DNA of 64,000 nucleotides. Source: Candidatus Wolfebacteria bacterium GW2011_GWB1_47_1. GTDB lineage: Bacteria > Patescibacteriota > Minisyncoccia > UBA6257 > UBA9933. The notes beneath the pieces are model-generated. The model was not told the origin of the DNA. It worked only from the letters and a program-made list of their open reading frames with translations, and made no database searches. The stretch is from the NCBI GenBank assembly GCA_001029635.1, contig CP011209.1, positions 157,352 to 221,351 on the forward strand. The letters are read 5' to 3'. A program made the translations under genes and the position numbers. Position 1 is the first letter of the stretch, and each line of letters opens with the position of its first letter. This document shows, in pieces, positions 3,503-58,719 of the stretch.

Positions 3503-3539
3503 AGATAGATTGTATACTATTCTCTTTTTCCTGTCCCAA

Positions 3540-3881
3540 TTAGACGAGCTTGGTTAACGCTTCCCTCAACTCCTCCTCGATAACCTCCTTCGGACGGTAG
3601 CCTACAAAGCTTGCCACAACCTGCCCATTTTTAAACAACTGCATATTAGGAATACTTTGGATGTGATATTCCGCGGCGATCTCGTGCGAGGTCGGCTCAT
3701 CCACATTCAACTTTGCGACTTTCACCTGATCGCCCATATCATGCGCGATAGCATCGAGGATAGGACCCATCATAATGCACGGACCGCACCACGGCGCCCA
3801 AAAATCAACAAGTACCGGCAGTGTCGATTCCAACACCTCCTCCTTAAAATTTTCAAATGTTACTTCGATTGGTTTTTTCAT
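3540..3881 (-). CDS. trxA: Thioredoxin
   Basis: WAPWCGPC active site, 113 aa. Confidence 0.9.
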   Translation of the reverse strand: MKKPIEVTFENFKEEVLESTLPVLVDFWAPWCGPCIMMGPILDAIAHDMGDQVKVAKLNVDEPTSHEIAAEYHIQSIPNMQLFKNGQVVASFVGYRPKEVIEEELREALTKLV

Positions 3882-3893
3882 ACAAAAAAATGA

Positions 3894-4136
3894 TTAATTA
3901 AATTTGAACAACGCTTTGATATATGCTTCGCCTAGATGCTTGCAACGGTCATCATCTTTGAGTAGCTCAACCCCCAGCGAAGAGATTGATTGGCGGATAG
4001 CAGATATTTGAGTGATCACGTCAACGCAAGCGCGTTCTTCCTCGATCATCGAACGGATTCCGCGCAATTGTCCTTCGATGCGGGCAATACGATCAACGAC
4101 ATCCTTCTTTTTGGAGAGTTGTTCTTTATTTCCCAT
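3894..4136 (-). CDS. CsoR/RcnR/FrmR-family metal- or thiol-sensing transcriptional repressor (about 80 aa)
   Basis: Small all-helical protein with conserved Cys residues (RACVD, DRCKH). The start is set at MGNKEQ because the upstream in-frame ATG lies inside the -10 element; the mRNA is likely leaderless. Confidence 0.7.
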   Translation of the reverse strand: MGNKEQLSKKKDVVDRIARIEGQLRGIRSMIEEERACVDVITQISAIRQSISSLGVELLKDDDRCKHLGEAYIKALFKFN

Positions 4137-4147
4137 ATTGGTATAGT

Positions 4148-4168
4148 ACATACCCCCAGGGGGTATGT
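4148..4168. promoter_or_regulatory. Perfect 21-bp palindromic operator ACATACCCCC-A-GGGGGTATGT (CsoR-type) embedded in the promoter for the csoR-trxA-trxB operon (minus strand)
   Basis: The palindrome sits in the spacer between -35 TTGACA (reverse complement of 4166-4171) and -10 TACTAT (reverse complement of 4143-4148). The G/C-tract ATACCC...GGGTAT architecture is typical of CsoR-family operators. Confidence 0.6.
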
Positions 4169-4355
4169 CAAGACATGGGTATTTATTGACTAAGAGTCAT
4201 TATATCTATACAATAGTTTCACATTGCATTCTACATTCTTAGCCATCTGCATTTTTGTTGTCGGTTATAGATTGTAGGTTGTTAGTTGTATTCCGCATTC
4301 CTAATCCCTTTGCATTCCTGTTATCGGTCATAGGTTTTCGGTTATCAGTTATTTT

Positions 4356-7773: not shown

Positions 7774-8325
7774 TTAAAAAGAGATCACATATCCGCTCAT
7801 AACCGCTCTGAGAGCATTTTCGCCCCGGATAATATCGAGGCTGGCAAATTTGACGAAGTAATTACTCCGCTCGACAAGTGTGAAAAACTGAGCCAAGTCA
7901 TTTAGTGTGTGTGATCCTTCCAAGGAAAGCTCAAAACTTGTCTTTCGCAGATCTCCGGACTGTGGGCCCGTCTCCTCCTTGAATCGAGGTGAGCCATTAA
8001 ATCCGGCCTGCTCCGCAAGGAAATTTATATCAGTAGAAAACGCAAGAAGTTGCTCTTTTGAAGTAAGTTTGCGATCAATCTGAGGAAGGTACTGTTGCGC
8101 CTTTTCGGCATCGCCTTGCAGTAAGGCCAGAGCGCTTAACGCCTGCTCTTTTGATTGTATTTCCGTACGCGCACTTTGGATCGAAAGGAATTTTGTATCG
8201 ATGCGGGTCATTGTATACCAAATACCGCCGCACAAAACACCGATAATAGTACATGCAACGACAAGCGTACGAATAAAATTTCTCTTAGGTTCCATATAGA
8301 TAAGTATACCGTAAATAATATTCAA
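7774..8325 (-). CDS. Hypothetical membrane-anchored protein (PilO-like topology: N-terminal TM plus coiled coil)
   Basis: TM segment LVVACTIIGVLCGGIWY followed by a predicted coiled-coil. The start could be M11 (MEPKRNF, 8295). Confidence 0.4.
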   Translation of the reverse strand: MNIIYGILIYMEPKRNFIRTLVVACTIIGVLCGGIWYTMTRIDTKFLSIQSARTEIQSKEQALSALALLQGDAEKAQQYLPQIDRKLTSKEQLLAFSTDINFLAEQAGFNGSPRFKEETGPQSGDLRKTSFELSLEGSHTLNDLAQFFTLVERSNYFVKFASLDIIRGENALRAVMSGYVISF

Positions 8326-8419
8326 TTTAAAATTTAAAATTTAAAAGCGCCTTAAACACTTTTTGGTTTTTACATTTAGAATTTTAAATTTTAAATTATG
8401 CAGTATATACTTACTTGAT

Positions 8420-16716: not shown

Positions 16717-18498
16717 ATGAATAAGACCCATAGTATGCACGATTTTAAAAAAGCCACGTTTGAAAATCTAATCAAGACGATCGAATATCGTCGCAAGCTT
16801 CCCGATATCGAAATAGAACTTTTGCAAAAGGCTTTTTTGACCGCACAAAAAGCACACGAGCCCCAAAAACGCAGCTCGGGGGAACCATACTTTAATCACG
16901 TATTTCAGACTGCAATCAAGCTTGCAGAATGGGGACTCGACACATCCACCATCTCGGCAGGATTACTGCACGACACGGTGGAAGATACATCATACAAACT
17001 GGAAGCGCTCAAGAAAGACTTCGGCGACGAGATCGCCTTTTTGGTCAACGGAGTTACCAAGTTGGGACACCTTAAATACCGGACTTCTCCTCAGACAGAA
17101 AAGGAACGCATGGAGCAAGCTGCAGAAAACTTGCGTAAGATGATTCTGGCAATCAGCGAAGACCTTCGCGTGGTCTTTATTAAACTCGCAGACCGTCTCC
17201 ATAATATGAAGACGCTCGGAGCTGTACCCCCCCAAAAACAAAAGCGTATCGCTTTGGAAACTCTCGAAATCTATGCTCCGCTTGCATACCGCCTCGGCAT
17301 GCAAGGACTGTCAGGAGAGCTCGAAGATATTACCTTTATGTATCTGCATCCCGAAGAATATAGATGGATGACGGAGCACGTGAAGGAGCAGTACGATGAG
17401 CGAGTTCAGTATCTCGAAGCAGTTGAGATACTTCTCCGCGAAGCGCTCAAGAAGGCTGGTATCACCCCGGTGAAGATAGATTACCGGGCGAAGCGCATCT
17501 CAAGTTTATATAAGAAATTATTGCGGGCAAACATGAGCCTTGAGCAAATCTACGATCTCGTCGCCCTGCGTGTTATTGTAAACACGATCGAAGATTGTTA
17601 TACCGCACTCGGGATCGTGCACCAAATATGGCCGCCACTACCGGGCCGCATTAAGGACTATATCGCATTACCAAAACCGAACGGGTATAAGAGCCTGCAT
17701 ACGACAGTATTTTGTGAGGACAAAAAAATAACCGAAATCCAAATCCGCACATTACAAATGCACGAAGAAGCAGAAAACGGAATTGCGGCACACTGGGCAT
17801 ATAGCCAAGCAAAGACCTCCAAGAATTTCATGGAGGGTAATAAAAACGTGACAGCAAACCAAGCAGACATTGCCTGGGTACAGCAACTGCGTAATTGGCA
17901 AAAGGATTTCACCGACCCGGAAGAATTTCTGCATTCGCTAAAAATTGATTTCTTCAAACATCGCGTATTCGCGATCACTCCAAAAGGAGAAGTGATCGAT
18001 CTCCCTGCCGGATCGACGCCGATCGATTTCGCATACCAGATTCATAGCGAGATAGGAGATCATTGTGTCGGCGCGAAAGTAAACGACAAGATGGTTTCTT
18101 TGGATTATCAGATCCAGTCAGGAGACCTTGTTGATATATTAGTACAAAAGAACAAAAAGCCTTCCGAGTCATGGCTGCAATTCGCAAAAACAGCGAGCGC
18201 AAAGTCAAAGATTCGCACCAATCTTAAAAAAGAAACTTCGTTTATGCGCAAAGCTCGCCAGCTCGAGCTACGCATCACTGCAGCCGATCGCGTAGGACTA
18301 ATCAAAGATCTATCTGCCGTCATATCTCGAGCGCGCGTCAACATTCTTAACCTTACCCATATCAGCCCCGCGCAAAAGACATCATTCCCTATTATCAAAA
18401 TAATTTGTGATATTGATAATAGGGAAAAGACCGAGAAGCTTATTCTAAAATTAAAGGGGGTAACGGGGGTTAAAGAAATCCATCATCAGATGATCTGA
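16717..18498 (+). CDS. rsh: Bifunctional (p)ppGpp synthetase/hydrolase RelA/SpoT homolog (RSH)
   Basis: HD domain HD motif LLHDTVEDT, synthetase domain (RIKDYIALPKPNGYKSLHTTV), TGS and C-terminal ACT-like region. TGA stop immediately followed by a terminator. Confidence 0.9.
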   Translation: MNKTHSMHDFKKATFENLIKTIEYRRKLPDIEIELLQKAFLTAQKAHEPQKRSSGEPYFNHVFQTAIKLAEWGLDTSTISAGLLHDTVEDTSYKLEALKKDFGDEIAFLVNGVTKLGHLKYRTSPQTEKERMEQAAENLRKMILAISEDLRVVFIKLADRLHNMKTLGAVPPQKQKRIALETLEIYAPLAYRLGMQGLSGELEDITFMYLHPEEYRWMTEHVKEQYDERVQYLEAVEILLREALKKAGITPVKIDYRAKRISSLYKKLLRANMSLEQIYDLVALRVIVNTIEDCYTALGIVHQIWPPLPGRIKDYIALPKPNGYKSLHTTVFCEDKKITEIQIRTLQMHEEAENGIAAHWAYSQAKTSKNFMEGNKNVTANQADIAWVQQLRNWQKDFTDPEEFLHSLKIDFFKHRVFAITPKGEVIDLPAGSTPIDFAYQIHSEIGDHCVGAKVNDKMVSLDYQIQSGDLVDILVQKNKKPSESWLQFAKTASAKSKIRTNLKKETSFMRKARQLELRITAADRVGLIKDLSAVISRARVNILNLTHISPAQKTSFPIIKIICDIDNREKTEKLILKLKGVTGVKEIHHQMI

Positions 18499-18499
18499 C

Positions 18500-18530
18500 A
18501 AAGAGAAGCGTTATGCGCTTCTCTTTGTCA
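18500..18530 (+). terminator. Terminator after the RSH gene
   Basis: AAAGAGAAGCGTTATGCGCTTCTCTTTGTC. Confidence 0.65.
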
Positions 18531-18629
18531 TTTTAAAAAGGTATGCTCTAGGTGCGTGATCAATCCAATTATGTTCGCATAGTAAGAAAAATTATGTACA
18601 ATATATGAAAACACTTCGCATATAAATGA

Positions 18630-18807
18630 GTTACGCAAAATGTCGTTCGGCTTCACTCCATTTTTCGTAACGTGGAGCTTTGCGAGGGTTGGGCTTCCTC
18701 TCTTCCCTATCGGGACAAGTAAACAAGCCTCGCACCACATCGCCTAACAACCGCTTGGCGGCGTCCGCCCAAATCCCGCTCCGCGGGACTTCGCAAAGCT
18801 CCACGTT
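18630..18807. repeat. Cassette-associated repeat copy 1: hairpin module, left IR AACGTGGAGCTTTGCGAGG (18669-18687), 40-bp core in orientation A (18688-18727), right IR interrupted by a 57-bp insertion
   Basis: Shares more than 60 bp with copies 2 and 3. The core is the exact reverse complement of the core in copy 2. Confidence 0.75.
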
Positions 18808-18841
18808 ATACGCAATTCTTTAAAACCTTAGCGCCATTAAG

Positions 18842-19465
18842 ATGAAAATATTCAAAAATGGATTAATAACAGGTCTGCTTCTTCAGTTGGCGGTAGGGCC
18901 TGTCTTTTTCTTTATTGTAAATTTAACGTTGCAAAAAACAATTCTCGACGGTTTTGTTGCGGTTTTTGCGGTGACATTGGTCGATTATTTGTACATCACG
19001 CTTGCAATTTTAGGGATTGGAAAATTGTTCGAAAAAAAGAAAGTTAAAAGAATTTTCAGTATAGTCAGTTCTATAGTCCTTATGATATTTGGCGTTATTT
19101 TAATTAAAGGAATTTTGGGAAGTAATATTTCAATAAACGTAGCTACTGATTCAAAAAATCTTCTAACAAGTTTTACCTCTGTTTTTTTTCTCACAATTTC
19201 CAGCCCCATGACAATAGTTTTCTTTACTAGTCTTTTCACCGCAAAAACCGTTCAATATAACTATGCAAAACGAGAATTGGTTATTTTTGGTTTTGCAACT
19301 GGCCTGGCAACATTTATATTCCTGGGGTTAACTGTCTTTTTATCCTCTTTAATCAAAGGAAATATTCCTATGTTATTAATCCAATTTTTGAATGCATTAG
19401 TTGGATGCTTACTAATTGGTTATGGAGCGGTAAGACTGAGAACGGTTTTAAAGAACAGCGTATAA
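18842..19465 (+). CDS. LysE/RhtB-family amino-acid exporter (AT-rich cassette gene)
   Basis: N-terminal LITGLLLQLAVGPVFF matches the LysE family signature; about 6 TM segments; codon usage is AT-rich compared with its neighbours. Confidence 0.7.
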   Translation: MKIFKNGLITGLLLQLAVGPVFFFIVNLTLQKTILDGFVAVFAVTLVDYLYITLAILGIGKLFEKKKVKRIFSIVSSIVLMIFGVILIKGILGSNISINVATDSKNLLTSFTSVFFLTISSPMTIVFFTSLFTAKTVQYNYAKRELVIFGFATGLATFIFLGLTVFLSSLIKGNIPMLLIQFLNALVGCLLIGYGAVRLRTVLKNSV

Positions 19466-19696
19466 CAAAGAATATCTGGTTCAAAATTTTCATATCAAGT
19501 ATAATAAAAAAGGAGTGTGAAAATTTCTCGACCCAAATTTTTCTTTCGCTGCTACAGAAAAACTTCAGATATTCTTAACGTTACGCAAAATGTCGTTCGG
19601 CTTCACTCCATTTTTCGTAACGTGGAGCTTTGCGAGGCTTGTTTACTTGTCCCGATAGGGAAGAGAGGAAGCCCAACCCTCGCAAAGCTCCACGTT
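19466..19696. repeat. Cassette-associated repeat copy 2 (full length): upstream module ACAAAGAATATCTGG..., hairpin module, perfect 19-bp IRs (19619-19637 and 19678-19696) flanking the 40-bp core in orientation B (19638-19677)
   Basis: AACGTGGAGCTTTGCGAGG-[CTTGTTTACTTGTCCCGATAGGGAAGAGAGGAAGCCCAAC]-CCTCGCAAAGCTCCACGTT. Confidence 0.8.
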
Positions 19697-19761
19697 AGCT
19701 GAAATAATCAAAATTTTTATCTTTATTAATAATAATTATCTGGGGCTTTTTTATTTTTTCT

Positions 19762-20301
19762 ATGCATGATTTAGCACTTCCATTTATACTTTCACAAGTT
19801 GCGATGTTCATCGCAATGGGCTTTGATTTTCTGAGTCTGCAATATAAAAAACGTGAGCATACATTTTTATGCCTAATTGTTTCGGCTAGTTTGATAAGCG
19901 CCCATTATTTTTTATTGAATAAAACAGCGGCTGGTGTTATTGTTTCGATTTCGGTTCTTCGATTTATTACTTGCTATTTTACAACGAATAAAAAATACTT
20001 GTTTATATTTATTGCGCTAAACACGATTTCATTATTTTTCACATATAAAGATCCTACCGATTTAATTATCTATATTGGCTTGATTATATTTATTATCGGT
20101 AATTTTCAGGAAGATAATCGGCTGATGAGAAAATTGATGATGGGTGGAACATCCTTGATTGTGGTGTATAATGCAGTTATCTTCTCACCGATGGGAGTTA
20201 TCGCTGAGGGCGTATTTTTGATTAGTGGTTTCATCGGCTATTATCGTCATTATGTGAAAAATAATGAAAAAATAAAAAAGCCCCAGATAATTATAGAATA
20301 A
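19762..20301 (+). CDS. YgjV-like inner-membrane protein (AT-rich cassette gene)
   Basis: Several TM helices in 179 aa; a weak resemblance to the YgjV family; very AT-rich. Confidence 0.45.
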   Translation: MHDLALPFILSQVAMFIAMGFDFLSLQYKKREHTFLCLIVSASLISAHYFLLNKTAAGVIVSISVLRFITCYFTTNKKYLFIFIALNTISLFFTYKDPTDLIIYIGLIIFIIGNFQEDNRLMRKLMMGGTSLIVVYNAVIFSPMGVIAEGVFLISGFIGYYRHYVKNNEKIKKPQIIIE

Positions 20302-20317
20302 GGAATATAAAAATTTA

Positions 20318-20496
20318 GATTACATCAGCTAACAAAGAATATCTGGCTCAAAAATTTTTCACTTTTACATTTTCAGATGAAAGAAAAATTTTCTCGACCC
20401 AAATTCATTTCCGCTACGCTTCAATGAACTTCAGATATTCTTAACGTTACGCAAAATGTCGTTCGGCTTCACTCCATTTTTCGTAACGTGGAGCTT
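20318..20496. repeat. Cassette-associated repeat copy 3 (truncated after the left IR)
   Basis: ACAAAGAATATCTGGCTCAAAAA...CTTCAGATATTCTTAACGTTACGCAAAATGTCGTTCGGCTTCACTCCATTTTTCGTAACGTGGAGCTTTT, then diverges. Confidence 0.7.
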
Positions 20497-20673
20497 TTTT
20501 GAAATTTTTTAGAACAAGAATGACGTCCTCCCCGCACTCCCATCCTCTACTCTTTCCACGACGGAATGGATCGTGCGGGGTTTCCTGGTAAGGTAGTAAA
20601 AAAAGGCGGCAAAATTTTGTCGTCCCGGGACTTAAAACTCTCTAAAATGATTGCGTATGTTTAGCTCGTGTGA

Positions 20674-21746: not shown

Positions 21747-21804
21747 AATGGTCTACTATATCGGAATTAGTTAGAAAATGCAAGGGGGTATTCTCTTTCT
21801 GAAT

Positions 21805-21975
21805 CCTGCAGCAAGCTATAAAAAGTGGGCAAAAATGATTGAAGAAAATTTCTCTTAAAATCGAGAATTTGGGACCCGTTTATTAACGGGTAATTCTCGA
21901 TTTTTTAGAAATTTTAAAGATCATTCCACTTTTTATCCCGCTTGCAGGCTTTTGCGTACTTTTCTAGAAAAGTAC
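21805..21975. repeat. Copy D of the roughly 143-bp TIR/hairpin element (21805-21948) plus the GTAC palindrome (21956-21975), inside the oriC region
   Basis: TIRs CCTGCAGCAAGCtATAAAAAGTGG and CCACTTTTTATcCCGCTTGCAGG; apex CCCGTT-TATT-AACGGG (compensatory relative to A and B). Confidence 0.7.
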
Positions 21976-22034
21976 ATAAAAACTCTTTTTGAATATGTTC
22001 TCGACGAGTATTGCATCTGCCCGATGAGACAATT

Positions 22035-22150
22035 TGTGGATATGTGGATAATTCTCGGTATAACTCTTTTTACTTTCACTTTTAGCCTATTTTTAATAAA
22101 ACCAAGTTCAAAAAACCCTTTATTTATGCGGGTCATATGAGTTATCCACA
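22035..22150. promoter_or_regulatory. oriC part 1: DnaA boxes upstream of dnaA (TGTGGATA-TGTGGATAA at 22035-22051; TTATCCACA at 22142-22150) with an AT-rich stretch between them
   Basis: Perfect consensus TTATCCACA boxes in the rpmH-dnaA intergenic region; the gene order rnpA-rpmH-dnaA-dnaN is the classical origin context. Confidence 0.7.
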
Positions 22151-22259
22151 CCTATTCCCCATTTTTTTACTTTTCCACACTATTCGCTATAATTTTATAA
22201 ATCTGTATAATGATTTTTAGTAACACATAGAGAAGTGTGTTGTCGTTATTTCTTACACC

Positions 22260-23627
22260 ATGGAACTCGATCAACTCTGGAAATCCGCTCTTGCTGAGCT
22301 TGAAATACAAATGACCCAGCCGAACTTTTTAACCTGGTTTAAAAACAGTCGACTTATCGATCGATCCGCCGAAGGAGAACTTGTAGTATCCCTTTCAAAT
22401 AATTTTGCAAAAGAATGGGTTGAAAATAAATACCATAAATCAATTCTTGAAATTCTTATCTCTTTGGATGACTCCGTGAGGCGCGTTCGGTATACGGTTG
22501 CCATTCTCCCAACGGAACCTCAAAAACCCCTCACAGATAGCAAAAAAGAGCGTTCCGGGGCTCCTCAGCAGGCTACGTTTGATGAATTCAAAATCGATCC
22601 AGAGACAAATCTCCACCCAAAATACACGTTTAAGTCATATATAGTGGGTTCTTCAAACGAATTAGCATATGCTGCTTCCCTCGCCGTTATTAAGGATATG
22701 GGGAAAAAGTACAATCCACTGTTTATTTATGGAGGATCGGGTCTTGGAAAGACCCATTTAATGCAATCTATTGGTAATCAAATTCGCCAGACCCATGGAA
22801 ATACCACAAAAGTAAAATATATTCCTTCCGAAAAATTCGTAAATGACATTGTATTTTCCATTAAAAACAAAAGAATGGAGGATATGAAGCGCATCTACCG
22901 CTCGGTAGATGTACTCATTATTGACGATATCCAATTTATCGCCGGAAAGGCAGCGAGTGAAGAAGAATTTTTTCACACGTTTAATGCCCTGTATGATAAT
23001 GATAAACAAATAATACTTTCATCCGATCGCCCTCCTCATGAAACTGCCATACTTGAAGAGCGCCTTCGTTCCCGCTTTAGTAGCGGAATGATCGTGGATA
23101 TTTCTTATCCGGACTATGAAATGCGCCTTGCTATCATTAAAAAGAAGCTTGAGCAGGAAAATATATCCATTCCTGATTCGGTTACCGAATTTATTGCCGA
23201 AAAGATGCAGCGTAATATTCGTGAGATAGAAGGAGTCTTGAAAAAGATCATGTTTTATCAGGATGTGAAAGGAGTTGAGGTGACTCGGGGAATAGTGGAG
23301 GAAATCATTGATAAAACGACGAAGCATTCCTTTAAAAATGTAACACCAAATCAGGTTATGCAAGTCGTTGCCAATTTCTTCGAACTTGCCGAAAAGGACC
23401 TAACCGACCAAGGAAGAAGAAAGGAGGTTGTTGAGCCGCGCCAGATCGCAATGTATTTAATGAAAGATCTCCTGGGGATGTCCTACTCGGATATCGGGTA
23501 TAAGATGGGGAAAAGAGATCATTCAACCGTTATGCACGCATGTGATAAAATCTCGACATTACTCACAACCGACCAGAAGTTGGGTAATAAACTTACTTCG
23601 ATTAAGGAAGTTATCAACAGTAAATAA
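22260..23627 (+). CDS. dnaA: Chromosomal replication initiator DnaA
   Basis: AAA+ Walker A GGSGLGKTHLMQ, Walker B LIIDDIQF, sensor and C-terminal DNA-binding domain (DIGYKMGKRDHSTVMHA). Confidence 0.92.
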   Translation: MELDQLWKSALAELEIQMTQPNFLTWFKNSRLIDRSAEGELVVSLSNNFAKEWVENKYHKSILEILISLDDSVRRVRYTVAILPTEPQKPLTDSKKERSGAPQQATFDEFKIDPETNLHPKYTFKSYIVGSSNELAYAASLAVIKDMGKKYNPLFIYGGSGLGKTHLMQSIGNQIRQTHGNTTKVKYIPSEKFVNDIVFSIKNKRMEDMKRIYRSVDVLIIDDIQFIAGKAASEEEFFHTFNALYDNDKQIILSSDRPPHETAILEERLRSRFSSGMIVDISYPDYEMRLAIIKKKLEQENISIPDSVTEFIAEKMQRNIREIEGVLKKIMFYQDVKGVEVTRGIVEEIIDKTTKHSFKNVTPNQVMQVVANFFELAEKDLTDQGRRKEVVEPRQIAMYLMKDLLGMSYSDIGYKMGKRDHSTVMHACDKISTLLTTDQKLGNKLTSIKEVINSK

Positions 23628-39624: not shown

Positions 39625-42600
39625 TTATTGCCCCGCACCTCGCAAGAACTTGAAGGTGTCTTCGAAATTCTTAAAGATGACGTCGAAAATCGACTCACCC
39701 TTTTGTGGCGTGATGACTGTACGAGGACCGAATGTCGTCTTGTTGCCTGCCGAGTCGGTTGATTCGATCTTCATCTGATAGATCGTACCTGGCTTGAGGC
39801 TCGAAAGAATGATCGCATGATTATTGGTATATGTATCGAGCTGTTCTTCCTTGTTGGCAAATCCGTCCTTTACCTGTCCTGCTCCTTCCTGATAATAGAT
39901 GACGGAATTGGACAATTCATCCGTTACCCAAGTAATAACGGTCTGTACTCGGTCGTTTCGACCGGGGACAAGCGCTCCGTCTACTTTAAAGTTGGAGATC
40001 TTTGGAGCGGTGATATCGCGTACCGTCGAAACGGTCAGGGGAGCTCCGCCTTCAATCAAGTTGCCCTTTTCGTTGTATCCGAATACCGTTACTTCATATG
40101 CAGTTGCCGGGACAAGCTTATCGATGAGAATCTCGTGCTCCTTAACAAGCGTATTTTCTATCTTGCGCTGAATTTCTCCGGTTCTTACATTTTTGTATTC
40201 CACAATGGTTGATGCGGTATCTTCCGTGCTCCAAACAACATTGAAGGAAGTATTCTTTATGTTTATTACGCGTGCCGAGATTCTTGAGGCCTTTGTTGTG
40301 AAGGTTGTGTCTTGGCTACTACCCACAACTTGAGGTAGGGAGAACGATCTCACCATAAAGTGATATTTGGTATTTGGTTCCAATCCTACCAGGGTAAGCT
40401 GATGATCCGTTTCCTTTGATTCTGTGCGGGATATTTCTCCTACATACGGGTTTGGCCGCGTTGCGTCAAACTCGCTTTCTTTTGCGTAGAGAATGACTGC
40501 ATACGATTTGATGTTCGTCTTCCAGCTTATATCAGCCGTATTTTCGGTTATGGCCGTAATGCGGGGTTCTTCCACAAACGGCGGCAATACTCCCGGCAAA
40601 ATAGATTCGATGGTTTGCTCAACCTCTTCCTCATACTGTTTTACATCCTCCACAGTTCTGAGGCCAGGGCTTGCCTGGGTGAGATATTTAGTTTTGAAGG
40701 TCTGGCTTTCGGAGATCATCCGATTTGCCGACTTGTCGATCGCCTCGGCTTCAAACTTGTATTCCGTACCCATTTTCAACCCCGTTATTGTGAATTTATG
40801 ATGAGTCGTCCAATCGCGATGGCTGATGGTATCGGTAAAGGCATCTTTCCCATAATGCAAGAATCCAAGTGAAGGTTCGCTTGCATCAAACTCGATTATG
40901 GCTCCAAACGCAGTTGTGGTCGCTATTGTTATGTTCGAGATCGTCGGCGCGGTAGTGTCTTTTACCTCTGGCGGTGTAGACTGGCTCGCTCCTCCACCGA
41001 TAGTTACCACGCGCACTTCACCCTCCTGGGTTGTGGCAAACGTTGTAGACGTTGATACGGCCGCATTTCCCGATCCATCTCGGGATTCCACTGAAAACGC
41101 ATACGTCGTATTTGGAGTCAATGCGGTTCCCGCGTCCAATCCAATATTGACTGAGTGATACACGGAGAGGGTGGCGTCTGCCGGCGTATAGGTATTCATC
41201 GTAGAAGAACTTGCCCCATACCGCACTTGTGACGTTGCGGGCTCGCTTGTCTTCCAAAATACACTCACGCTGTTTGGTGTGCGGATTGGCGTAGAAACCT
41301 GAGAGATCGCCGGAGGGAAGGTATCGTTGGTCGTGCGGAAGGTGCGGTATGTACCACCGTTATCATCCATTGTGGTATTGCCCTGTACATCGGTCGATTG
41401 TACCGAGTAATAGTAGGTAGTCCCTGCGGCGAGGCCGGTGACGGGAACGGTATGGATAAAGTCTTCGGTTGTTGATGCATCTCCCACGGGGAGTGACGTT
41501 CCCCATACTTCCTTATATCCATTAAAGGACTGACTTACCGCATAGCGCACTAAGGTATCAGCAGTCTTATTGGTATGCCAGCTGACGAGCGCATTGGCAT
41601 CGGTAATGCCTTCGCCCGTGATCTGGGTGATATAGGGACCCGCAGTTGTATGGAAGGTATAACCCGCTCCGCTATTGTCATCGATTCCTTCATTAAGATT
41701 GGAATCCTTTGATGCAACCTTGAACACATAATCACTATCCGGGACAAGGGCCGAGAGTGTTACGCTGTGTGTTTGTCCGGCTCCCTGTTCTGTTGCGGTC
41801 ATGCCATAGGCGGCATCGCCTACTTTATTGTAGGACACGATTCCATCCGCGTCTTCATCGGTCTCCCACGTAATAGTCGCCCAGGTTGAGTGGACTACCG
41901 GTGCGGAAGGAGCGACGGTAAAGAGTGGTGCGTTAGAGTCGGAGCTACCGCGGCCGTCCGGGACATCGGTGAGTACTGGCGAGTACGCAGAAGTATCGTC
42001 GTCCGTATCGACGACAGCGATGCGATATGTGTACTCGGTCGATGATGCAACTTCGTTGTCGAGATAATAGGCCTGGAGCAATGTGGTCTGCGTGGCAAGT
42101 AAATCAAAGGTTATGCCATCAGCTGCCCGTTCCACGAGATAGTGCTTGAAGGTAGAGTTGGCAACATTGCCATGTACCGGCCATGAAATAAATTCCTTAT
42201 AGAGTTGGAGATCCGCCTTTGAGATATCAGTGAAGTCGATTCTGCTTGGCGCGCTCGGCGCAACGATAGATTGCTGACTTATGTTGCCCGAGCCATCGCG
42301 CACCTGTACGTAAATGGTCGGATAGCTCGAAGTCGCCACAGTCCATGTAAGCGATGATGCAGCTGTTGCGTTGGCATCAATCCACTGACCATCGGTCGCA
42401 TTGGTTGCCGACGATGACGAGGCGGTGAAGTTGGCAAATTCAGAGAAACGATATTGGAACGCCCCCTCGTCAGAGAATGCGAAGGTTAGTGCATTGGTGC
42501 GTGCGTCAAAGCGTGCCGTGGTGATCGTCGGGTCGGTAGTATCAATGACGAACGCGGAAGTTGTCGCGGTTGCGGTGCTGAAGATTGCCTCTTGGTCGTT

Positions 42601-45600
42601 GATCGTGATCCTGATCATCGCGGTGTTGGAGTAGACGCCATCAATATCTGCCTTGGCATCCCAATAGGCGCCGAGTACTGTAGCGGTCGCGCCGATCGGC
42701 TGTAAGCCGTTGGTGCCGCTTTCGAGCACGAGAGATGGAGAGGATGTCGCAATATCGGTCCAGGTGGAGCCATTGTCGGTTGAATACGCGAAGGACGGCT
42801 CGATGCGTCCCGGGATAGTTACGCCTTCCGCGGTATCCTCATCAAGAATGGTGTAGTTGACATGAACCTGTCCGTAGCGGGCATCGGTGGAGTCCGATAT
42901 GACACTTGCTGACTGCGATGAAAACGCCGGTCGGATATTGTACCCCGCACTGTTTGTATCGGTTGCTTCGTCTATATTGCCAAAGACATCGCGGATACGC
43001 ACGGTGATTGTTTCGCTGCGCGAGTCCACATGCCAAGGGAAGGTTGTTGTCGCAAGGGTAACACCATCGGATGCGAAGGCATCCCCCCAACTGTCTTCGG
43101 TTGCGACTCCTCCAACATAACCGTACCAGGTGGTACCGCCATTGCGGGAGAACTGCGCCTGAATCTGCTCATTGATCGGATGACCCGATAGTGAGACGAG
43201 GCGTAAGGTGACGTCTTTGGAGTCGGTGACTACAATTTCACTGGAATCGTTGATCAGTAAGGAACCGCCTGATAAGGTCGGTGGGGTGATGTCGAGAATA
43301 AACGAAGTCGATGTCGCGATACCGAGGTTATTGAGTTGCTCGGCATCATTTGCCGTTACGCGGATTCGAACATCGTCTTGTGAGACGTTATTAAGCTCCG
43401 TTTTTGCGTCCCAGTGTGCGGTGAACGATGCTGGGGTTGCCGATACCGTAGTGGACGCAATGTCCCCCGTTACGAGACTGGCCGGAATCCAAGTCGATTC
43501 CCCATCAAGTGAATAGGCAAAGGATGGTGTCGCTGCTATGTTATCAAGATCGGCGATCGTGTATTCGATGGTAACATCGGCATTGTTTGGATCAGGTGTC
43601 TGTGCCGCAGTAACCGTTACGATCGGTGCGCTGTTATATGACACGGTATTGGAATCAGTTGCGGGGCCATGGCCAAGAGTATCCATGATACGCACAGAGA
43701 TAGTTTCGGTCTTTTCGCCTAAGACAATATCCCACGCAACGGTTGACGTTGATGAGAACGACGTGCCATAGGCATCCTGTGCACCGATGGTGCCGTCGGC
43801 ATTTGCCGCATACCAAGTTACGCCGTCATGGGAAAGCTGTGCAATAATCAGCTCGCCTACCGGGGATCCGGTGACATCGGCCAACGTCACGGTGACGTTG
43901 GCGGAGGCTGCTTGTACGGTAGCGGAAGATCCGTTGATTACCACTGATGATTCGGTGAGTGCCGGCGCGGAAGTATCAAGATATAATGACGCATCAATCG
44001 ATGCGGAGAGGTTTCCCGCGATATCAATGTAGCGAACAGAGACGGTTTTGGTTGCGTCTCCCGCCGTAAGGGCATATGCCTTCGTGGTTGCGTATGATTC
44101 CGCGGAGGTCCAGGTGGTGCCATCTCCGGAGAATTGCATCTGAGTCACCGAATTATTGTCGGTTGCAGATAGATGCAAGACGACGTCGGTCGAGGTAGCA
44201 TAGGCGGATCCATCATTGATAACAAGGGTTCCGGTTGGTTCCTGGGTATCAAGCGTAATCGTATCGCTCGCGGTTTCGGAAATAAGGCCGGATCCATCGA
44301 TGACCTGCGCGGAAACACCTTGTATTCCATCGACACTCGGAATGGTCACGGATGATGTTGTCGCAAACGCAGACCAAGTAGACCAGGTAGCTCCTTCATC
44401 GGTTGAGGTCCGCATCTGGCTAGCCCCTGACCCTGCATCGGTTGCGGTGACCGTGAGGGTAACGGTTATGCTATTGGCAAACGCATTGTTGTCGTTAATA
44501 ACTAGTGAGATGACAGGCGCAATGGTGTCGATAAGAATATTGGCATTAGCCGATACGGACATATTATTACGTGCGTCACGGAACTGTGAGTAGACAGTCT
44601 TTAATCCCTCTCCCGTCGCAAGGGTATATGCTTTGGATGTCGCATATGATTCCCATGCAGACCAGTCGGTGTCGTTGTCGGAAAAGCGCATTGAGGCAAC
44701 TGATGATCCGGTATCAGTCGCAGAGAGATTTAATGTAACTGCCGTGGATGATGCATAGCTTGCGCCGCTATTAATGGCAATGGTTCCTGATGGAGCAATG
44801 GTATCGATCGCGAAATTTGCACTCGTTAATGATGCGGTATTACTGAATGTATCTGCATCGTCGGCGGTAAACCGAATGGCAAACGCGGAGCCACTCACGG
44901 CGCCTGCATACTGCGTCGCATCCCAGTAGGCGGAATATGAGGTATCAGTACCTGTCCCCACGGCAATCGGGGAACCAAATGCAACGCCAGCCGCATCGGT
45001 GAGTTGATTGATAGGAAGCGTTGCCCATAGCGAACCATCATACCATTCAAATGACGGTATCACCTGGTTTGTTGTGGAGTCGGTATCTCGGAGCGCGAAG
45101 TCGATCTTTATCTTGCCGAAGTTTGCGTCGGTAGAAGAAGCAAGTTGTGCGGCAGTAATAGACGCAATGGTTGGCGGTACGTTGTATGTATAGGTAGGGG
45201 TTACATCGTCAACCCTCGGCGTATATATTCCGTCAGAGGTGAGATCTACCTTGTATTGGAAATATTGATCTCCCGATCCATCCTGCATGGACGCGGGAAT
45301 TGAGGAAGAACCGCAGGTTACGGTGTCTGTAATCTTTCCACAGGCATTGGTGAAGGCTGTCCATATGCCAAGCGTATCGGTAGATGCGCCGGTACGGAGC
45401 GACACGGTAACGGAGGTATTAGCCGGAAGAGTCGTATCTTCTTTCCAGCTCAATCCGGTCATTATATTGGTCGCACTCGTGGAATTGTATAGGGAGGAAA
45501 GAAGCGAGCTTGTGGAAGCGTATCGTGCATATGTAATGGAAACGTCATCCAGTGACGGTGACTGCGAAGTATTTGCCGTCGAGAGCGTTGCCTTGTACTG

Positions 45601-48600
45601 AATGTATCGATGGCCCACCACTGCACCCAACGTGCTCAAGGAGATGCCGGTGTTAGTGGAAGCAGTGCCAAAGGATGCCGCATCAGAAAGATCAGCGGCA
45701 TTGCTGGTGCGCACCTGCATCGAAACAGTCTGTCCGCCCGAATTTGTCCACGAGAGATTGCCCCAGTTTGCCACTGCACTGCCCGCGTCCAAGACGCCGG
45801 AGGTGAAGGAGCCGGATGGATGGTAGCTGCCCGGGAAGGTAACAGACCCGGTCACGCTGTCGAGTGAGGGGGTAACTGCAGTATTTCCCCCGTTTGCCAA
45901 GGTAGCCTGATACCAGAGGTAGCGGCTATTAGATGGAGCGCAAGTCGTGTTAAGGGTGATTGACCCATTGGCGGAAACAGTCCCGGAATCGCAGGTGCCC
46001 GAAGCAAAGCTTGGCGCGCTCGCCGAGGTAGTTCCTTTAACCTTGATGCTGAAAGTTGTTCCCGAAGGATACTGTCCTGCGTACGCAAACGAGTTCCAGG
46101 TGTATGCGGCTGCGGAACCGGCGTCAAAGTAGGAAGTGTAGGTCCCGGAAGTGGCATACGATACGAGTATTCCAGGTACAAAAACAGTGTCTACAGTAGC
46201 AGTTGGCTGGATTGGAGCAGTAACACTGCCGGTCGTCGCCCCGTTGCCGACTTGGCCGGCGCCGTCATCTCCCCAGCACCATAAGCTTCCGTCGATGTAG
46301 GAGCAGGTGTGATTGTACCCCGTAGCAACCTGCGTCACGCCACTTGCAACGACCGTGGCAGGGGAATGTATGGCACCGGTAGTAGCCCCGTTGCCGATTT
46401 GGCCTAGACTGTCATCTCCCCAGCACTGCAGACTCCCGTCCGTCTTAACGGCGCAGGTGTGATTTTTCCCCGTAGCAACCTTCGTCACGCCACTTGCAAC
46501 GACCGTGGCAGGGGAAGTTATATTACCGGTGGTTCCCCCGTTACCGACTTGTCCCCAGCCATCATATCCCCAGCACTGCAGACTCCCTGATACGACGGCG
46601 CAGGTGTGATTGTCCCCCGCAGCAACCTGCGTCACACCGCTTGCGATAGCCGTGACAGGGGCAATCATGTCGTAGTTGGTCGCCGGCCCGTTGCCGACCT
46701 GGCCGGCGCCGTCACTCCCCCAACACTGCAGACTCCCGTCAGTCTTGACGGCACAGGTGTGTTTGGTCCCCGCGGCAACCTGTGCCACTCCACTTGCGAT
46801 GACCGTGACAGGGGAAGTTATGGCGCCGGTGGTCCCTCCGTTGCCAAGCTGCCCGTAGTTGTCATACCCCCAACACTGCAGACTCCCCGATACGACGGCG
46901 CAGGTGTGTTCGTACCCCGCAGCAACCTGCGTCACGCCACTTGCAATGACCTGGAACGGAGAAACGACATTGCCAGTCGTCGCCCCGTTGCCGACTTGGC
47001 CGTAGCTGTCATATCCCCAACATTGCAGACTCCCCGATACGACGGCGCAGGTGTGTGCGTACCCCGTAGCAACCTGCGTCACGCCACTCGCGATGACCTG
47101 GAACGGAGAAACGACATTGCCAGTCGTCGCCCCGTTGCCGATTTGGCCGTAGGTGTCGGATCCCCAGCACCACAGACTTCCGTCCGAGCTCTTAATGGCG
47201 CAGGTGTGAGTGCCTCCCCCGGCAACCTGGGATCCTAAAAGGGGTCCAGGCCCTTGGATGGATGGCTGGACTGGAGAAGTAATGTTACCGGTGGTTGCTC
47301 CGTTGCCGACTTGGCCTAGACTGTCATCCCCCCAACACCACAAACTCCCGTCCGTCTTGAAGGCGCAGGTGTAGTAGGTTCCCCCGGCAACCTGACTCAC
47401 TCCGGAAATTCCCGCGACTTGCACCGGCGAGAGCTGATCTTGCTCTAGGGCGTTGCCTAATTGGCCATATAGAATACTAGAATACGCATCGCTATAGCCA
47501 TTAGATCCCCAACACCACAAACTCCCGTCTGTCTTGACGGCGCAGGTGTGGTAATATCCCGTAGTTACCTGACTCACTCCGCTGGCAATGGTCTGGACTG
47601 GAGAGGTGACACTACCACTAGTTGTTCCGTTGCCGATCTGTCCGTTGCTGTTATATCCCCAGCACCACAGACTCCCGTCTGTCTTGACGGCGCAGGTGTG
47701 TAAGAAGCCCGCAGTTACCTGGCTCACTCCGCTGGCAATAATAGGGGCTGGAAGCATGACATAACCAGTGGTTGGTCCGTTACCAATCTGCCCGGCAGAG
47801 TCATTTCCCCAGCACCACAGACTCCCGTCTGTCTTGACGGCGCAGGTGTGGTAGACTCCCGTAGTTACCTGACTCACTCCGCTGGCAATGATCTGGTTCG
47901 GAGACGTGGTAAGGCCCCCGATCGATCCGATGCCGACCTGTCCATCGCTGTTATATCCCCAACACCACAAACTCCCGTCTGTCTTGACGGCGCAGGTTTG
48001 ACTCTTTCCTGCGGAAACCTGGACCACTCCGGAAATTCCTGCGACTTGCACTGGAGAGGGCTGATCTGACGGTATAGTATTGCCGAGTTGGCCAGTTAGA
48101 TCATAGCCATATCCTGACTCATAACCGTTAATTCCCCAGCACCACAGACTCCCGTCCGTCTTGACGGCGCAGGTATGACTGCTCCCCGCAGAAACCTGCG
48201 TCACTCCGCTGGCAATGATCTGGACTGGAGATGTAATAGCTCCTCCGATCACTCCGTTGCCAATCTGTCCATGATCGTTATATCCCCAGCACCACAGACT
48301 CCCGTCCGTCTTAACGGCGCAGGTGTGGTAATCCCCTACGGAAATTTGTGAAGACGTATCACGTAACGTTACGCTCGAATTAGAGCCGCTTACCCCGTTT
48401 AGGTTTGTGTCCGCATTTGCACCATATGCCCACCCTCCTTGCTGAGAGGGAGTTGCGACGGTGGATGTGTCATCGGTCGTTGTAATGCTTCCGGTCACGG
48501 ATTGCGTTGTGAGTGTAATCGAAGTTCCTGTCCCGCTTCCGGTAAGCGTGGTCGTTGCGGTGGTATACGCGCCATACGCAAACCCGCTTGCGGTTGTAGT

Positions 48601-48864: not shown

Positions 48865-49075
48865 TCTATTGTAGCGTTTAGAGAATTGCATTGTATGTAT
48901 AAGTGTGTGTTTGTTTGAATAGGTTCTTCGTGTGGTATCACTTCGTAGTGGGGCTGGCTGTATATAAATCCCTTGGGGTGACTCCGGGGGTCGACTTCCA
49001 CCGGGGTCCCGATATCGTTTTTTAAAATGCAAAAATTCACTTTTTTGAAAAGTGTTCCGCAGTTCACGTATACGC

Positions 49076-49146
49076 AATGACGCACGCAAGAGTGTCATGT
49101 GTGTTCGTAGAGAATTCGTTTTTCATTTCCACGCAAATAGAAATGA
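49076..49146. promoter_or_regulatory. Conserved upstream region of giant gene 1 (AATGACGCACGCAAGAGTGTCAT ... TTCCACGCAAATAGAAATGA), repeated in inverted orientation upstream of giant gene 2 (58831-58892)
   Basis: 23-bp and 20-bp blocks are identical at both loci in the same orientation relative to each gene, 200-250 bp upstream of the start codons. Confidence 0.55.
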
Positions 49147-57600: not shown

Positions 57601-57810
57601 ATATGTCAACTGGTGATAAAGCGATGAAGATGAGTTGTATCCCCTCCGGCGCCCGCTTCTTGCGGGCGGGCGCCGGAAAAATAGCAGAAAATGCGAGGAG
57701 GAAATAGAGCCTTCCACTTAGAAATTGTCATTAGTAATTAAAAATTTTAAATTACAAATTAAAAATTACCCCATATGTCCTGTCGTAAAATATTTGCTAT
57801 ACTATCTGTA

Positions 57811-58719
57811 ATGGATATTAATATCTTACTAAAGGAATATTTGGATTACCTCGAGATCGAGAAGAACAGATCAAAAAAGACGGGAGAGAATTATGGAAGG
57901 TATCTGCAGAAATTTATCGATACCGAAGGTATTAGGACTGAGGAGGATATAACGATAGGGCGAGTAAGAGACTTTCGTCTTCACTTGGCGCGTTCCTCGA
58001 ACGGGAGAGGCGATCAATATAACAAGTCAACACAAAGCTACTATATAATAGCATTGAGAAACTTCCTGAAATATTTGGCAAAAAACGATCATAAGGTTCT
58101 TTCTCCTGATAAGATAGAATTGCCGAAGGTTCCGATGCGACAGATTGAAGTAATTGAGTATGACGAGCTGGAGCGGTTATTAGGCGCAGTAAACGGGGGC
58201 GACACAAAAGCACTTCGCGACAGGGCGATATTGGAGGTACTCTTTTCAACCGGGCTACGTATCTCAGAGTTATGTAGCTTGAACCGATATATGGATTTTG
58301 ACCGTGGTGAAGTGACAGTAAGAGGGAAGGGAAATAAATTACGGGTAGTGTTCTTGGACACGAAGGCCGTGGCGGCGATCAAACAATATCTCGATAGGCG
58401 GGGTGACGCCGAGGAGGCAATGTTTGTAAGTTACACCAAGGCGGCAAGCCCGAAGGTGATTGGACGGATCATCCCACGGGCGGTGCAGCGCTTAGTTGAT
58501 CATTACTCGCGCAAGGCAGGAATAGCAAAGCACGTGCATCCACACATGCTACGTCATTCTTTTGCTACCGATCTTTTGATCAATGGAGCCGACCTGCGGT
58601 CTGTCCAAGAGATGCTCGGACACGCCAATATTGCCACAACACAGATCTACACCCATATTACAAATAAGGAACTTAAAGAGGTTCATCAGGCGTTCCATGG
58701 AAAAAGAAGAAAACAGTAA
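57811..58719 (+). CDS. Tyrosine site-specific recombinase (XerC/XerD-like)
   Basis: Catalytic R...HxxR...Y pattern: RDRAILEVLFSTGLRISEL, HPHMLRHSFATDLL, IATTQIYTHI. Confidence 0.85.
   Translation: MDINILLKEYLDYLEIEKNRSKKTGENYGRYLQKFIDTEGIRTEEDITIGRVRDFRLHLARSSNGRGDQYNKSTQSYYIIALRNFLKYLAKNDHKVLSPDKIELPKVPMRQIEVIEYDELERLLGAVNGGDTKALRDRAILEVLFSTGLRISELCSLNRYMDFDRGEVTVRGKGNKLRVVFLDTKAVAAIKQYLDRRGDAEEAMFVSYTKAASPKVIGRIIPRAVQRLVDHYSRKAGIAKHVHPHMLRHSFATDLLINGADLRSVQEMLGHANIATTQIYTHITNKELKEVHQAFHGKRRKQ

Follow-up and report, generated by a model that had tools for sequence, protein, structure and literature searches.

A gene-cassette array without its own recombinase in a Candidatus Wolfebacteria chromosome, probably part of an integron-like gene-capture system

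The closest described systems to the locus reported here are integrons, above all the sedentary chromosomal ones, in which a divergent tyrosine recombinase stands beside an attI site and the cassettes that come after it share one orientation and mostly hold a single ORF. An imperfect palindrome with AAC...GTT ends (attC), of which the structure is kept and the sequence varies, closes each of them. A canonical attC has a 7-bp R box, an unpaired central spacer and extrahelical bases opposite the bottom-strand AAC arm (PMC5027507). The integrase, IntI, carries in its catalytic domain an inserted helix, I2, which has been called necessary for cassette capture; its acquisition is thought to have given integron integrases single-strand cassette recombination, although "intermediates" are lacking (PMC7790495). 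Clusters of attC sites without an integrase are known as CALIN (IntegronFinder definitions, PMC9024848). Tyrosine recombinases of the type considered below, from bacteria of the Candidate Phyla Radiation (CPR), have been filed as Xer-like, with no role in mobile elements (PMC8138268).

The stretch analysed here – the window – comprises 64 kb of the chromosome of a Candidatus Wolfebacteria (CPR/Patescibacteria) with a genome of about 1 Mb. Positions 18570-20497 of its forward strand hold a short array of gene cassettes that lacks a recombinase gene to itself, and we read it, with a probability of roughly three in four, as the recombinase-less cassette array of an integron-like gene-capture system in which a conspicuous inverted core is a template-switch scar. 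The array runs from an attI-type region through an ORF-less mini-cassette (X1), a LysE cassette with its attC-like site, a second mini-cassette (X2) and a YgjV cassette with its attC-like site to a truncated third mini-cassette (X3); four to five structured sites can be counted in 18630-20497. The genes in and around it are relA/spoT, LysE, YgjV, DUF2695 and rnpA, and a switch in GC skew at 22-24 kb of the window places oriC 1.5-3.5 kb from the array. The cargo genes are indeed more AT-rich than their surroundings, as had been noticed previously (32.7% and 32.2% GC, against 45.5% in relA and 46.7% in the window), and their horizontal acquisition is consistent with the cassette context.

An earlier note on this DNA described three local copies of a composite repeat of about 230 bp around the LysE-type and YgjV-type genes. 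Its sequence statements all hold and the copies are real, but the unit divides into two sites: an attC-like site that closes an ORF cassette, and the ORF-less mini-cassette X; the upstream part of copies 2 and 3, some 125 nt, is thus a separate structured site. X1, the standard form, occupies 18630..18804 (+); X2, at 19580..19693 (+), is a derived form that has the same 5' part and is 61 nt shorter; X3, at 20446..20497 (+), breaks off within its left arm at 20497, where the array has its distal end. The three share a 42-nt left part, GTTACGCAAAATG...CGTAAC, which starts at 18630, 19580 and 20446 (chance expectation 0) and which in X1 spans 18630-18671 (GTTACGCAAAAT...TTTTTCGTAAC). As DNA, X1 folds at -40 kcal/mol with a z-score of about -7.5. 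A scan of the genome collection by the X pattern gave no matches, and a metagenome scan with a 20-mer from the X stem gave a single one (L009).

The two ORF cassettes are built alike. Cassette 1 (18805..19579, +) starts at G/TTATACGCAAT and carries a LysE-family ORF at 18842-19465 (Pfam LysE, E 5e-17), the stop codon of which is overlapped by R'' ACAGCGTATAAC (19455-19466). Its attC-like site, at 19455-19579, continues with L'' AAGAATATCTG, a CCCAAAT box and AACTTC plus L' CAGATATTCTT, and ends in AAC; the bottom strand folds with a z-score of -4.0, and the site fits the structure of the site family. Cassette 2 (19694..20445, +) starts at G/TTAGCTGAAAT, carries a YgjV-family ORF at 19762-20301 (Pfam Imp-YgjV, E 8e-35) and closes with an attC-like site at 20322-20445 (R'' ACATCAGCTAAC, 20322-20333; bottom-strand fold z -4.4), a near-identical counterpart of which occurs in another species (L048). 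When the start of this cassette is compared with its end in reverse complement, 23 of 27 positions agree. Around each ORF lies an inverted repeat of its own, GTTATACGC...GCGTATAAC and GTTAGCTGA...TCAGCTAAC, a feature missed in the earlier note. An Rfam scan of the array returned only Ms_IGR-8, at E = 0.21, a chance match.

Every cassette starts with GTT and ends in the inverse of its own start, true cassettes matching at 18-25 of 27 positions (permutation p < 1/5000), and after each ORF comes an imperfect palindrome that is structured and has AAC...GTT ends. Across 27 sites – hairpins of 64-210 nt in direct orientation – 89.3% of the predicted positions pair, where slid controls give 29-38%, and a covariation score of 0.388 compares with 0.05-0.08. 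Compensatory cells number 71 against about 22 in shuffles, a figure reached by none of 500 shuffles, and nine of 14 stem pairs have changed on both sides. The inverted repeats reach a length of 25-30 bp and contain an AA/TG mismatch that is fixed; between cassettes only GTT...CGAAAT / ACATCG...AAC is conserved, and the rest of each repeat is cassette-specific. In 27 arrays 46 ORFs lie in the sense orientation and 14 in the antisense, and some units carry several ORFs or none. Cargo is almost never common to two species (one weak pair was seen), and no LysE or YgjV cassette was found in the arrays of other species; the cassettes of L048 and of the sister array described below (L018) have similar ends and unrelated ORFs.

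Upstream of X1, at 18570..18629 (+), lies the attI-type region, abutted by the relA terminator (18496-18530) and with no recombinase ORF beside it. The sequence that precedes the recombinase gene in five CPR lineages can be aligned with it, and GAAAACACTTCG.ATA.AA...AGTT is invariant in the alignment. Within it a TTCGCA box (18574-18579) and a TACAAT box (18597-18602) are followed by TATATGAAAACACTTCGCATATAAATGA, which ends at the junction A/GTT (18629/18630). In a promoter scan the region comes out as a promoter directed towards the cassettes, and the conserved TTCGCA-17-TACAAT boxes may be the promoter from which they are expressed.

A central issue is the whereabouts of the recombinase. That no intI adjoins the array had been stated before, and in the whole 64-kb window no IntI was found: the sole tyrosine recombinase (57775-58719; 314 aa, 37 kb from the array) is an ordinary Xer-like one. 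The earlier note had suggested looking through the full genome for an integrase or invertase gene. A cognate tyrosine recombinase, P0001 (271 aa), lies about 57 kb from the array on the same JGI contig, but it is no canonical IntI, and no invertase is nearby. Beside it stands a sister array (locus L018) of the order attI-X1-A-X1-B-X1, the three X copies of which are 100% identical to one another and, over 176 nt, to X1 of the window. At that locus and in other CPR lineages, though not in the window, the recombinase adjoins attI and is divergent from the cassettes. P0001 scores 228 bits on NF040815 (cutoff 220); on the integron-integrase model TIGR02249 (cutoff 265), which it matches in two pieces, it scores 214 bits against 128 for the ordinary Xer of the genome. 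The catalytic R-K-H-R-H-Y is invariant. Where VchIntIA has 65 residues (177-241) P0001 has 22; its AF2 model shows no extra helix, the Foldseek alignment with 2A3V has about 46 gap columns, and the best matches to its fold are XerA and IntI, which come out nearly equal. P0001 is an IntI/XerA-like recombinase without the IntI-specific I2 insertion. One record that first linked the two arrays, L016, was rejected as proof that they are contiguous: a real arrangement of this kind would mean the loss of about 54 kb with relA and clpB in it, and it is therefore more likely that the assembly was joined across the 178-bp repeat X1. Assemblies break at the array, and several contigs end at X, which is ORF-less and GC-rich. 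A shorter relA-lysE spacer in L011 proved to be a scaffold gap (NN) and no variant.

The platform, in which a recombinase has attI at about -78 and the cassettes share one orientation, is seen again in many CPR lineages; in Moranbacteria, as in other groups, small co-oriented ORFs lie upstream of recombinase homologues. Homologues of P0001 number roughly 7,400. Among 24 close loci, 20 have the strict attI motif at a distance of 76-82 nt, and the other four have a near-match there. On the side and strand where sites are predicted, their motifs reach a density of 0.96 per kb; in controls it is 0.15-0.25 per kb. Cassette content varies among strains with an identical recombinase (L018, L023 and L009). 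We found no earlier account of a CPR integron-like platform in the literature, and an integron-like gene-capture system widespread in these bacteria is apparently undescribed. The broader proposition – a widespread, unrecognised CPR capture system of I2-less IntI/XerA-like recombinase, attI and mirrored attC-like hairpins, either sister or intermediate to integrons or independent of them – seems to us evenly balanced between true and false.

How closely does this platform approach an integron? The earlier note had seen the likeness to integron cassettes, and it goes further than the AAC...GTT palindrome after each ORF: the inverse core complements the start of the cassette to which it belongs, an attI-type region is present, the cargo is varied and for the most part differs from one species to the next, and ORF-less cassettes, assembly breaks and a bottom strand that is the more stable and the richer in G.T pairs are further points in common. 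There are also differences. The recombinase has no I2 and falls under the TIGR02249 cutoff. The conserved core is GTTnnnCGAAAT / ACATCGnnnAAC and not GTTRRRY, as had been noted, and the complementarity of the cassette ends is far longer than the 7 bp of integron core sites. In the ORF-sense strand the bulged bases, G, TT and a longer spacer, fall on the 3' arm, the one that carries the bottom-strand AAC and is opposite to the bulged arm of canonical attC; between AAC and the inner GTT a variable stem of 11-13 bp is paired, where attC has a short unpaired central spacer. A conserved ORF-less X often follows attI and, in this array, every cassette as well, and the hosts are CPR bacteria. The system is integron-like in its working, yet no canonical integron, because its recombinase is without I2 and its site bulges lie on the opposite arm. 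The window array, with its sites and no adjoining recombinase, resembles a CALIN, and it falls under that definition (at least two attC, no integrase nearby) only on the premise that its sites are attC-like.

From this anatomy and from the comparison with known systems we infer a mechanism. Through site-specific recombination at the GTT/AAC junctions, for which folded single strands are the probable substrate, P0001 would excise and insert cassettes in circular form, and it would act in trans on the window array. The placement of the bulges points to the top strand as the one recombined, whereas stability and G.T wobbles point to the bottom; with the cues in conflict, we rejected inferring the strand from site asymmetry. 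Several observations count against the integron-like reading: the I2-less recombinase and the non-canonical geometry of the sites; the strict alternation of X with ORF cassettes, which simple insertion at attI does not predict; and the unusual conservation of the recombinase (74-82% across CPR classes), which together with its overlap of downstream housekeeping genes looks housekeeping-like. If the broader proposition is true, I2 would not be required for capturing cassettes on folded sites, and a natural I2-less cassette platform would be a concrete object on which to test the question of I2. It would also represent a route of gene gain in tiny CPR genomes; integron finders that start from the integrase would not see such arrays, which cause assembly breaks in CPR genome bins.

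The same conservation and overlap lend themselves to another explanation, that P0001 is a housekeeping single-recombinase Xer (XerA/XerS-like), attI its dif, and the cassettes Xer-exploiting (IMEX-like) elements piled up there. In XerS/difSL, too, gene and site are adjacent. XerA is the best match to P0001 in sequence and in fold, I2 is absent from both, and attI contains a palindrome, TATACGAA-AACAC-TTCGTATA, the halves of which co-vary; moreover, CPR recombinases have been placed in a Xer-related 'Cand' group (PMC8138268), and the CTX phage, an IMEX, integrates as a folded single strand (PMC7790495), a precedent for a folded hairpin as substrate of an I2-less recombinase. We nevertheless consider this unlikely. 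A single dif in the terminus region is not what the genome shows: it has two attI-type sites and, in addition to P0001, the ordinary 314-aa Xer, which the integron-integrase model scores so much lower. With oriC at 22-24 kb and a genome of about 1 Mb, neither the attI-type region of the window (about 3.5 kb from oriC) nor the recombinase (about 57 kb) lies at the terminus. The inserted units are single-gene cassettes with structured sites of their own, in ordered arrays, and not phages or plasmids. Furthermore, the explanation overlaps with the integron-like one, in that the locus would still be a cassette platform. The pdif modules of Acinetobacter plasmids are likewise small gene modules bounded by sites for Xer-family recombinases. 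Those sites, however, are double-stranded XerC/XerD sites of about 28 bp in alternating orientation, whereas the covarying hairpins described here are in direct orientation and lie beside a dedicated recombinase.

It is very improbable that the units are ordinary intergenic repeats, whether REP/MITE-like palindromes or duplicated terminator or promoter modules, with no mobility at all. They are palindromic and repeated between genes, and X is ORF-less and GC-rich with several contigs breaking at it; but the many dispersed intergenic copies expected of REP, BIME or MITE families are wanting, for the repeats are confined to arrays and no copy was found elsewhere in the 64 kb. The earlier note had named a common intergenic REP family as the outcome that would overturn its account, and on this evidence that outcome did not materialise. 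(A cluster of motifs at 37.4-37.8 kb was rejected as a chance occurrence inside fusA.) Immobile repeats also sit poorly with a four- to six-fold enrichment of sites on a single side and strand relative to one family of recombinases, with compensatory changes across lineages, with cassette-specific pairing of start and end, and with strains that differ in cassette content.

It is likewise very improbable that the cassettes are transposon-like, their inverted repeats serving as transposase termini and the tyrosine recombinase being incidental. The repeats that flank the ORFs are, at 25-30 bp, much longer than integron core sites, and one array (L025) has an IS200/IS605-type Y1 transposase gene nearby. 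Most loci, however, have no transposase, there are no target duplications, the cassettes are always arrayed at a conserved attI beside the recombinase, and the repeats are mostly cassette-specific, unlike the ends that a transposase binds.

There remains the inverted core. In X1 the left arm (18668-18687) is followed by the core in minus orientation (18688-18727), an inner CCTCGCA (18728-18734), a 56-nt segment (18735-18790) that holds a second R'' ACATCGCCTAAC (18737-18748) and CCCAAAT, and the right arm (18791-18804). In X2 the core, in plus orientation (19638-19677), lies between perfect arms at 19618-19637 and 19678-19697; these had been reported as 19 bp long and measure 20 bp (TAAC...GTTA). 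The arm sequence AACGTGGAGCTTTGCGAGG is found at 18669 (+), 19619 (+) and 19678 (-), with a one-mismatch copy at 18789 (-). The core itself occurs once per strand and is, just as had been claimed, an exact reverse complement between copies 1 and 2, with 0 mismatches over 40 nt; 18668-18734 and 19631-19697 are 100% complementary over 67 nt. The 61 nt by which X1 is longer lie between TCGCA direct repeats (18730-18734 and 18791-18795).

From the exact inversion and the perfect arms the earlier note had proposed an invertase-type, phase-variable switch, in which a recombinase flips the 40-bp core between inverted repeats; this is almost certainly wrong, given that the two orientations occupy two different loci, that no invertase is nearby, and that a search of other assemblies for both orientations found the core fixed at each position (13/13, 7/7 and 15/15 records, these being consensus sequences from which minority orientations could escape). 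The core is in minus orientation before lysE and in plus orientation before ygjV in every assembly (the orientation of X2 is the same in 13/13 records), and all other X copies of the family have it in minus orientation. The inverted core is instead a fixed mutational scar of a replication slip. Template-switch mutations at quasi-palindromes homogenise the arms and invert the spacer (PMC8604942), and a single replication template switch at the X1 quasi-palindrome would have inverted the core, perfected the arms and removed the asymmetric 61 nt at once. One simulated switch on X1 yields X2 exactly (118/118). Template switching is a mutational process and not a functional element, and it concerns the inverted core only. 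It also has a parallel close by: the relA terminator, an unrelated hairpin, shows a similar flip of its loop between strains of the lineage.

What lies at window positions 18570-20497 is a genuine cassette array that belongs to an integron-like system, as the likeness to integron gene cassettes raised in the earlier note had suggested; it is not, however, a canonical integron, since its cognate recombinase, P0001, lacks the extra helix and falls short of the TIGR02249 cutoff (214 against 265 bits). The repeats and inverted core described in that note do exist and are local, with three copies of the 42-nt left part (18630, 19580 and 20446) and one copy of the 40-nt core per strand. The arm AACGTGGAGCTTTGCGAGG lies on the + strand at 18669 and 19619 and on the - strand at 19678, with a one-mismatch copy at 18789 (-), while the 67 nt of 18668-18734 show 100% complementarity to 19631-19697. 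None of these – left part, arm, core or 67-nt complement – is expected from shuffles. The cargo proved as AT-rich as claimed (32-33% GC in both ORFs against 45.5% in relA and 46.7% in the window); it comprises a LysE-family (E 5e-17) and a YgjV-family protein (E 8e-35). The array is flanked upstream by relA/spoT and its terminator, and downstream by DUF2695, rnpA, dnaA and dnaN. The AT-rich intergenic region between rnpA/rpmH and dnaA (21800-22260) is probably oriC, because the GC-skew sign change (20-24 kb) coincides with it; the array lies 1.5-3.5 kb away.

The ~230-bp composite repeat exists, but not as a single unit: it consists of two different sites back to back. The first is an attC-like site of ~125 nt (19455-19579 and 20322-20445) that terminates each ORF cassette and reads R'' (…AAC), a variable L'' stem, a CCCAAAT-box loop, AACTTC plus L', and a final AAC, after which the next unit begins at GTT. 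The second, X, is a mini-cassette without an ORF, GTTACGCAAAAT…TTTTTCGTAAC followed by a long hairpin (copy X1 at 18630-18804, X2 at 19580-19693 and the truncated X3 at 20446-20497). Both fold far better than shuffles (z -4 to -9). Each ORF is enclosed by an inverted repeat of its own, GTTATACGC…GCGTATAAC for LysE and GTTAGCTGA…TCAGCTAAC for YgjV, which classically marks a circularly permuted cassette. Positions 18570-18629 hold a full copy of the attI-type region, the recombinase gene being absent.

The earlier remark that no intI adjoins the array holds for the entire 64-kb window, whose sole tyrosine recombinase is an ordinary Xer of 314 aa (57775-58719 (+); XerC 246 bits, XerD 241 bits). 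Contig L016 led to P0001, a distinct recombinase of 271 aa situated on the 283-kb JGI contig that also carries the array, ~57 kb from it and 38 kb past the window's left end; NCBI labels it "integrase [Candidatus Wolfebacteria bacterium]". L016 itself was probably joined through X1 during assembly. At its native locus the recombinase (←) is followed, after ~75 nt, by attI, X1, cassette A, X1, cassette B, X1 and the array end. All three of these X1 copies share 176 nt with the window X1 at 100% identity, which makes copy 1 the standard form and copy 2 the exception. P0001 clears the cutoff of the "XerA / integron integrase" model (228 against 220 bits), its match to TIGR02249 is split in two pieces, and the ordinary Xer reaches 128 bits with the latter; judged by sequence, P0001 is far more IntI-like than that Xer. 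In P0001, 22 residues stand opposite 65 in VchIntIA, the AF2 model (pLDDT 79) contains no extra helix, and its near-equal best fold matches are XerA (E 2e-15) and IntI (E 1e-14). According to PMC7790495, cassette capture requires the I2 helix, which no other protein has. The catalytic residues are invariant. That recombinase and attI constitute a dif/Xer system is a reading weakened by their position (oriC at 22-24 kb), by the two attI-type sites and by the separate ordinary Xer in the same genome.

Homologues of P0001 (52-82% identity) occur in Moranbacteria, Paceibacterota, Saccharibacteria, Gottesman-, Shapiro-, Komeili-, Gracili- and Kaiserbacteria. Upstream of them are co-oriented small ORFs, including NUDIX, methyltransferase, KilA-N, VTT and a HepT/MNT pair, and the housekeeping genes downstream vary between genomes; the family's stop codon overlaps or abuts a different one in each (MFS, fmt, prfA, glycosyltransferase, tmk). 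Family identity between CPR classes is unusually high (74-82%), which may reflect strong constraint or a recent spread of the platform by transfer. The conserved upstream region comprises a TTCGC box and GTACA-TATACGAAAACACTTCG(Y)ATATAAnnnA|GTTnnnCGAAAT. Of 24 close loci, 20 have the strict attI motif at a distance of 76-82 nt from the start codon, and the other four a near-match at the same offset; changes at loci L041 and L048 are compensatory within the palindrome, L055 is interrupted by the contig end, and divergent loci retain TTCG(Y)ATAAnAACGA|GTT. In an incomplete collection of literature we found no description of such a cassette platform in CPR, which is absence of evidence only. Several unrelated cassettes (L027, L018, L009, L025; for example L018 9700-9610 (-)) carry after the GTTnnnCGAAAT start a conserved ~80-nt leader, …AAATTTTTTATCTTGG…GAAAATTTGATTTTTTAT…AGAGGGG…, perhaps a promoter or ribosome-binding module carried by the cassette. 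At L066, a distant lineage with a 56% identical recombinase, the first cassette starts with GTTATACGCAAT, the same 12 nt as the window LysE cassette; this may be coincidence.

Site structure was tested by aligning 27 sites arm to arm and counting pairs. Standard pairs filled 89.3% of cells (slid registers 29-38%; shuffles mean 74.0%), the covariation score was 0.388 (slid 0.05-0.08; shuffles mean 0.113) and compensatory cells numbered 71 (slid 7-18; shuffles ~22), neither of the last two values being reached in any of 500 shuffles; nine of 14 stem pairs are altered on both sides. Comparing each cassette start with the reverse complement of the same cassette's end gave a mean of 11.3 matching positions, compared with 8.1 when starts and ends of different cassettes were paired (p < 1/5000); clear cases matched at 18-25 of 27, and an AA/TG mismatch is fixed. 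ORFs are sense in 46 cases and antisense in 14, and the density of R''/R' motifs is 0.96 per kb where side and strand are as predicted, compared with 0.15-0.25 per kb elsewhere. Reading the repeats as REPs or MITEs, or the cassettes as transposons, fails on the distribution and covariation evidence.

Compared with canonical attC (PMC5027507), the CPR sites place their bulges (G, TT) and longer spacer on the 3' arm of the ORF-sense strand, their variable stem is paired whereas the attC spacer is unpaired, and the end complementarity of their cassettes is much longer. As in attC, the bottom strand is the more stable (16 of 17 sites) and G.T wobbles favour it (17 against 4 on the top strand). Given that bulge placement differs but stability and wobbles agree, the recombined strand cannot be inferred.

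The inverted core had been taken for an invertase-type switch. We reject this idea: core orientation is constant at each position in all assemblies, core(+) in the X before ygjV (13/13 records) and core(-) both in that before lysE (7/7, plus four deletion variants) and in all other X copies (15/15). A simulated single template switch on X1 yields copy 2 exactly (118/118); the switch would occur at TGCGAGG/CCTCGCA, with copy-back through core and left arm and subsequent rejoining. PMC8604942 describes this mechanism as homogenising arms and inverting spacers. The relA terminator hairpin (18496-18530; perfect 15-bp arms, 5-nt loop) has the loop TTATG in the window and most assemblies and CATAA, the exact reverse complement, in JGI L001 and L012: a small hairpin-loop inversion polymorphism between strains, in which the loop flips as the core does.

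X alternates strictly with ORF cassettes here, and at L058 a further ORF-less unit alternates with the ORF cassettes. An X-like ORF-less element comes first after attI at L029, L031, L040, L041, L056, L058 and L062; a second R'' motif lies in the long-hairpin loop of L058, L031 and X1. One possibility is that ORF cassette plus X forms the mobile unit. The array locus was also found in NCBI, JGI and ENA assemblies. The NCBI genome lacks 58 bp of the copy 1 loop, and L009 has a third cassette, a small zinc-ribbon ORF with copy-1-type X on its flanks, its own core/inverse core and a new compensatory L pair. The X interior is the break point of several contigs. A 1058-bp metagenome contig (L009 1-1058), its first 68 nt identical to its last 68, holds X1 and a single zinc-ribbon cassette, and represents either an assembly unit bounded by repeats or the cassette in circular or tandem form.

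Cassette B of L018, the array beside P0001, is inside-out, with only 15 nt between start and inverse core (8064-8092 +); its site loop (~8140-8340) holds a small reverse-strand ORF of ~66 aa, served by a strong promoter of its own (TTGACA-17-TATCAT with TG) and by a GGAGGA ribosome-binding site. Near the Paceibacteria array, L025 carries a perfect 29-bp tandem duplication (3504-3561) adjoining an IS200/IS605-type Y1 transposase gene (3547-4218). In the ENA contig L004 (1-3600), rubrerythrin-/hemerythrin-type genes upstream of ligA replace the window's dprA/topA, by either strain rearrangement or assembly chimera. The window also contains a giant ORF of 3157 aa at 39625-49098 (-).
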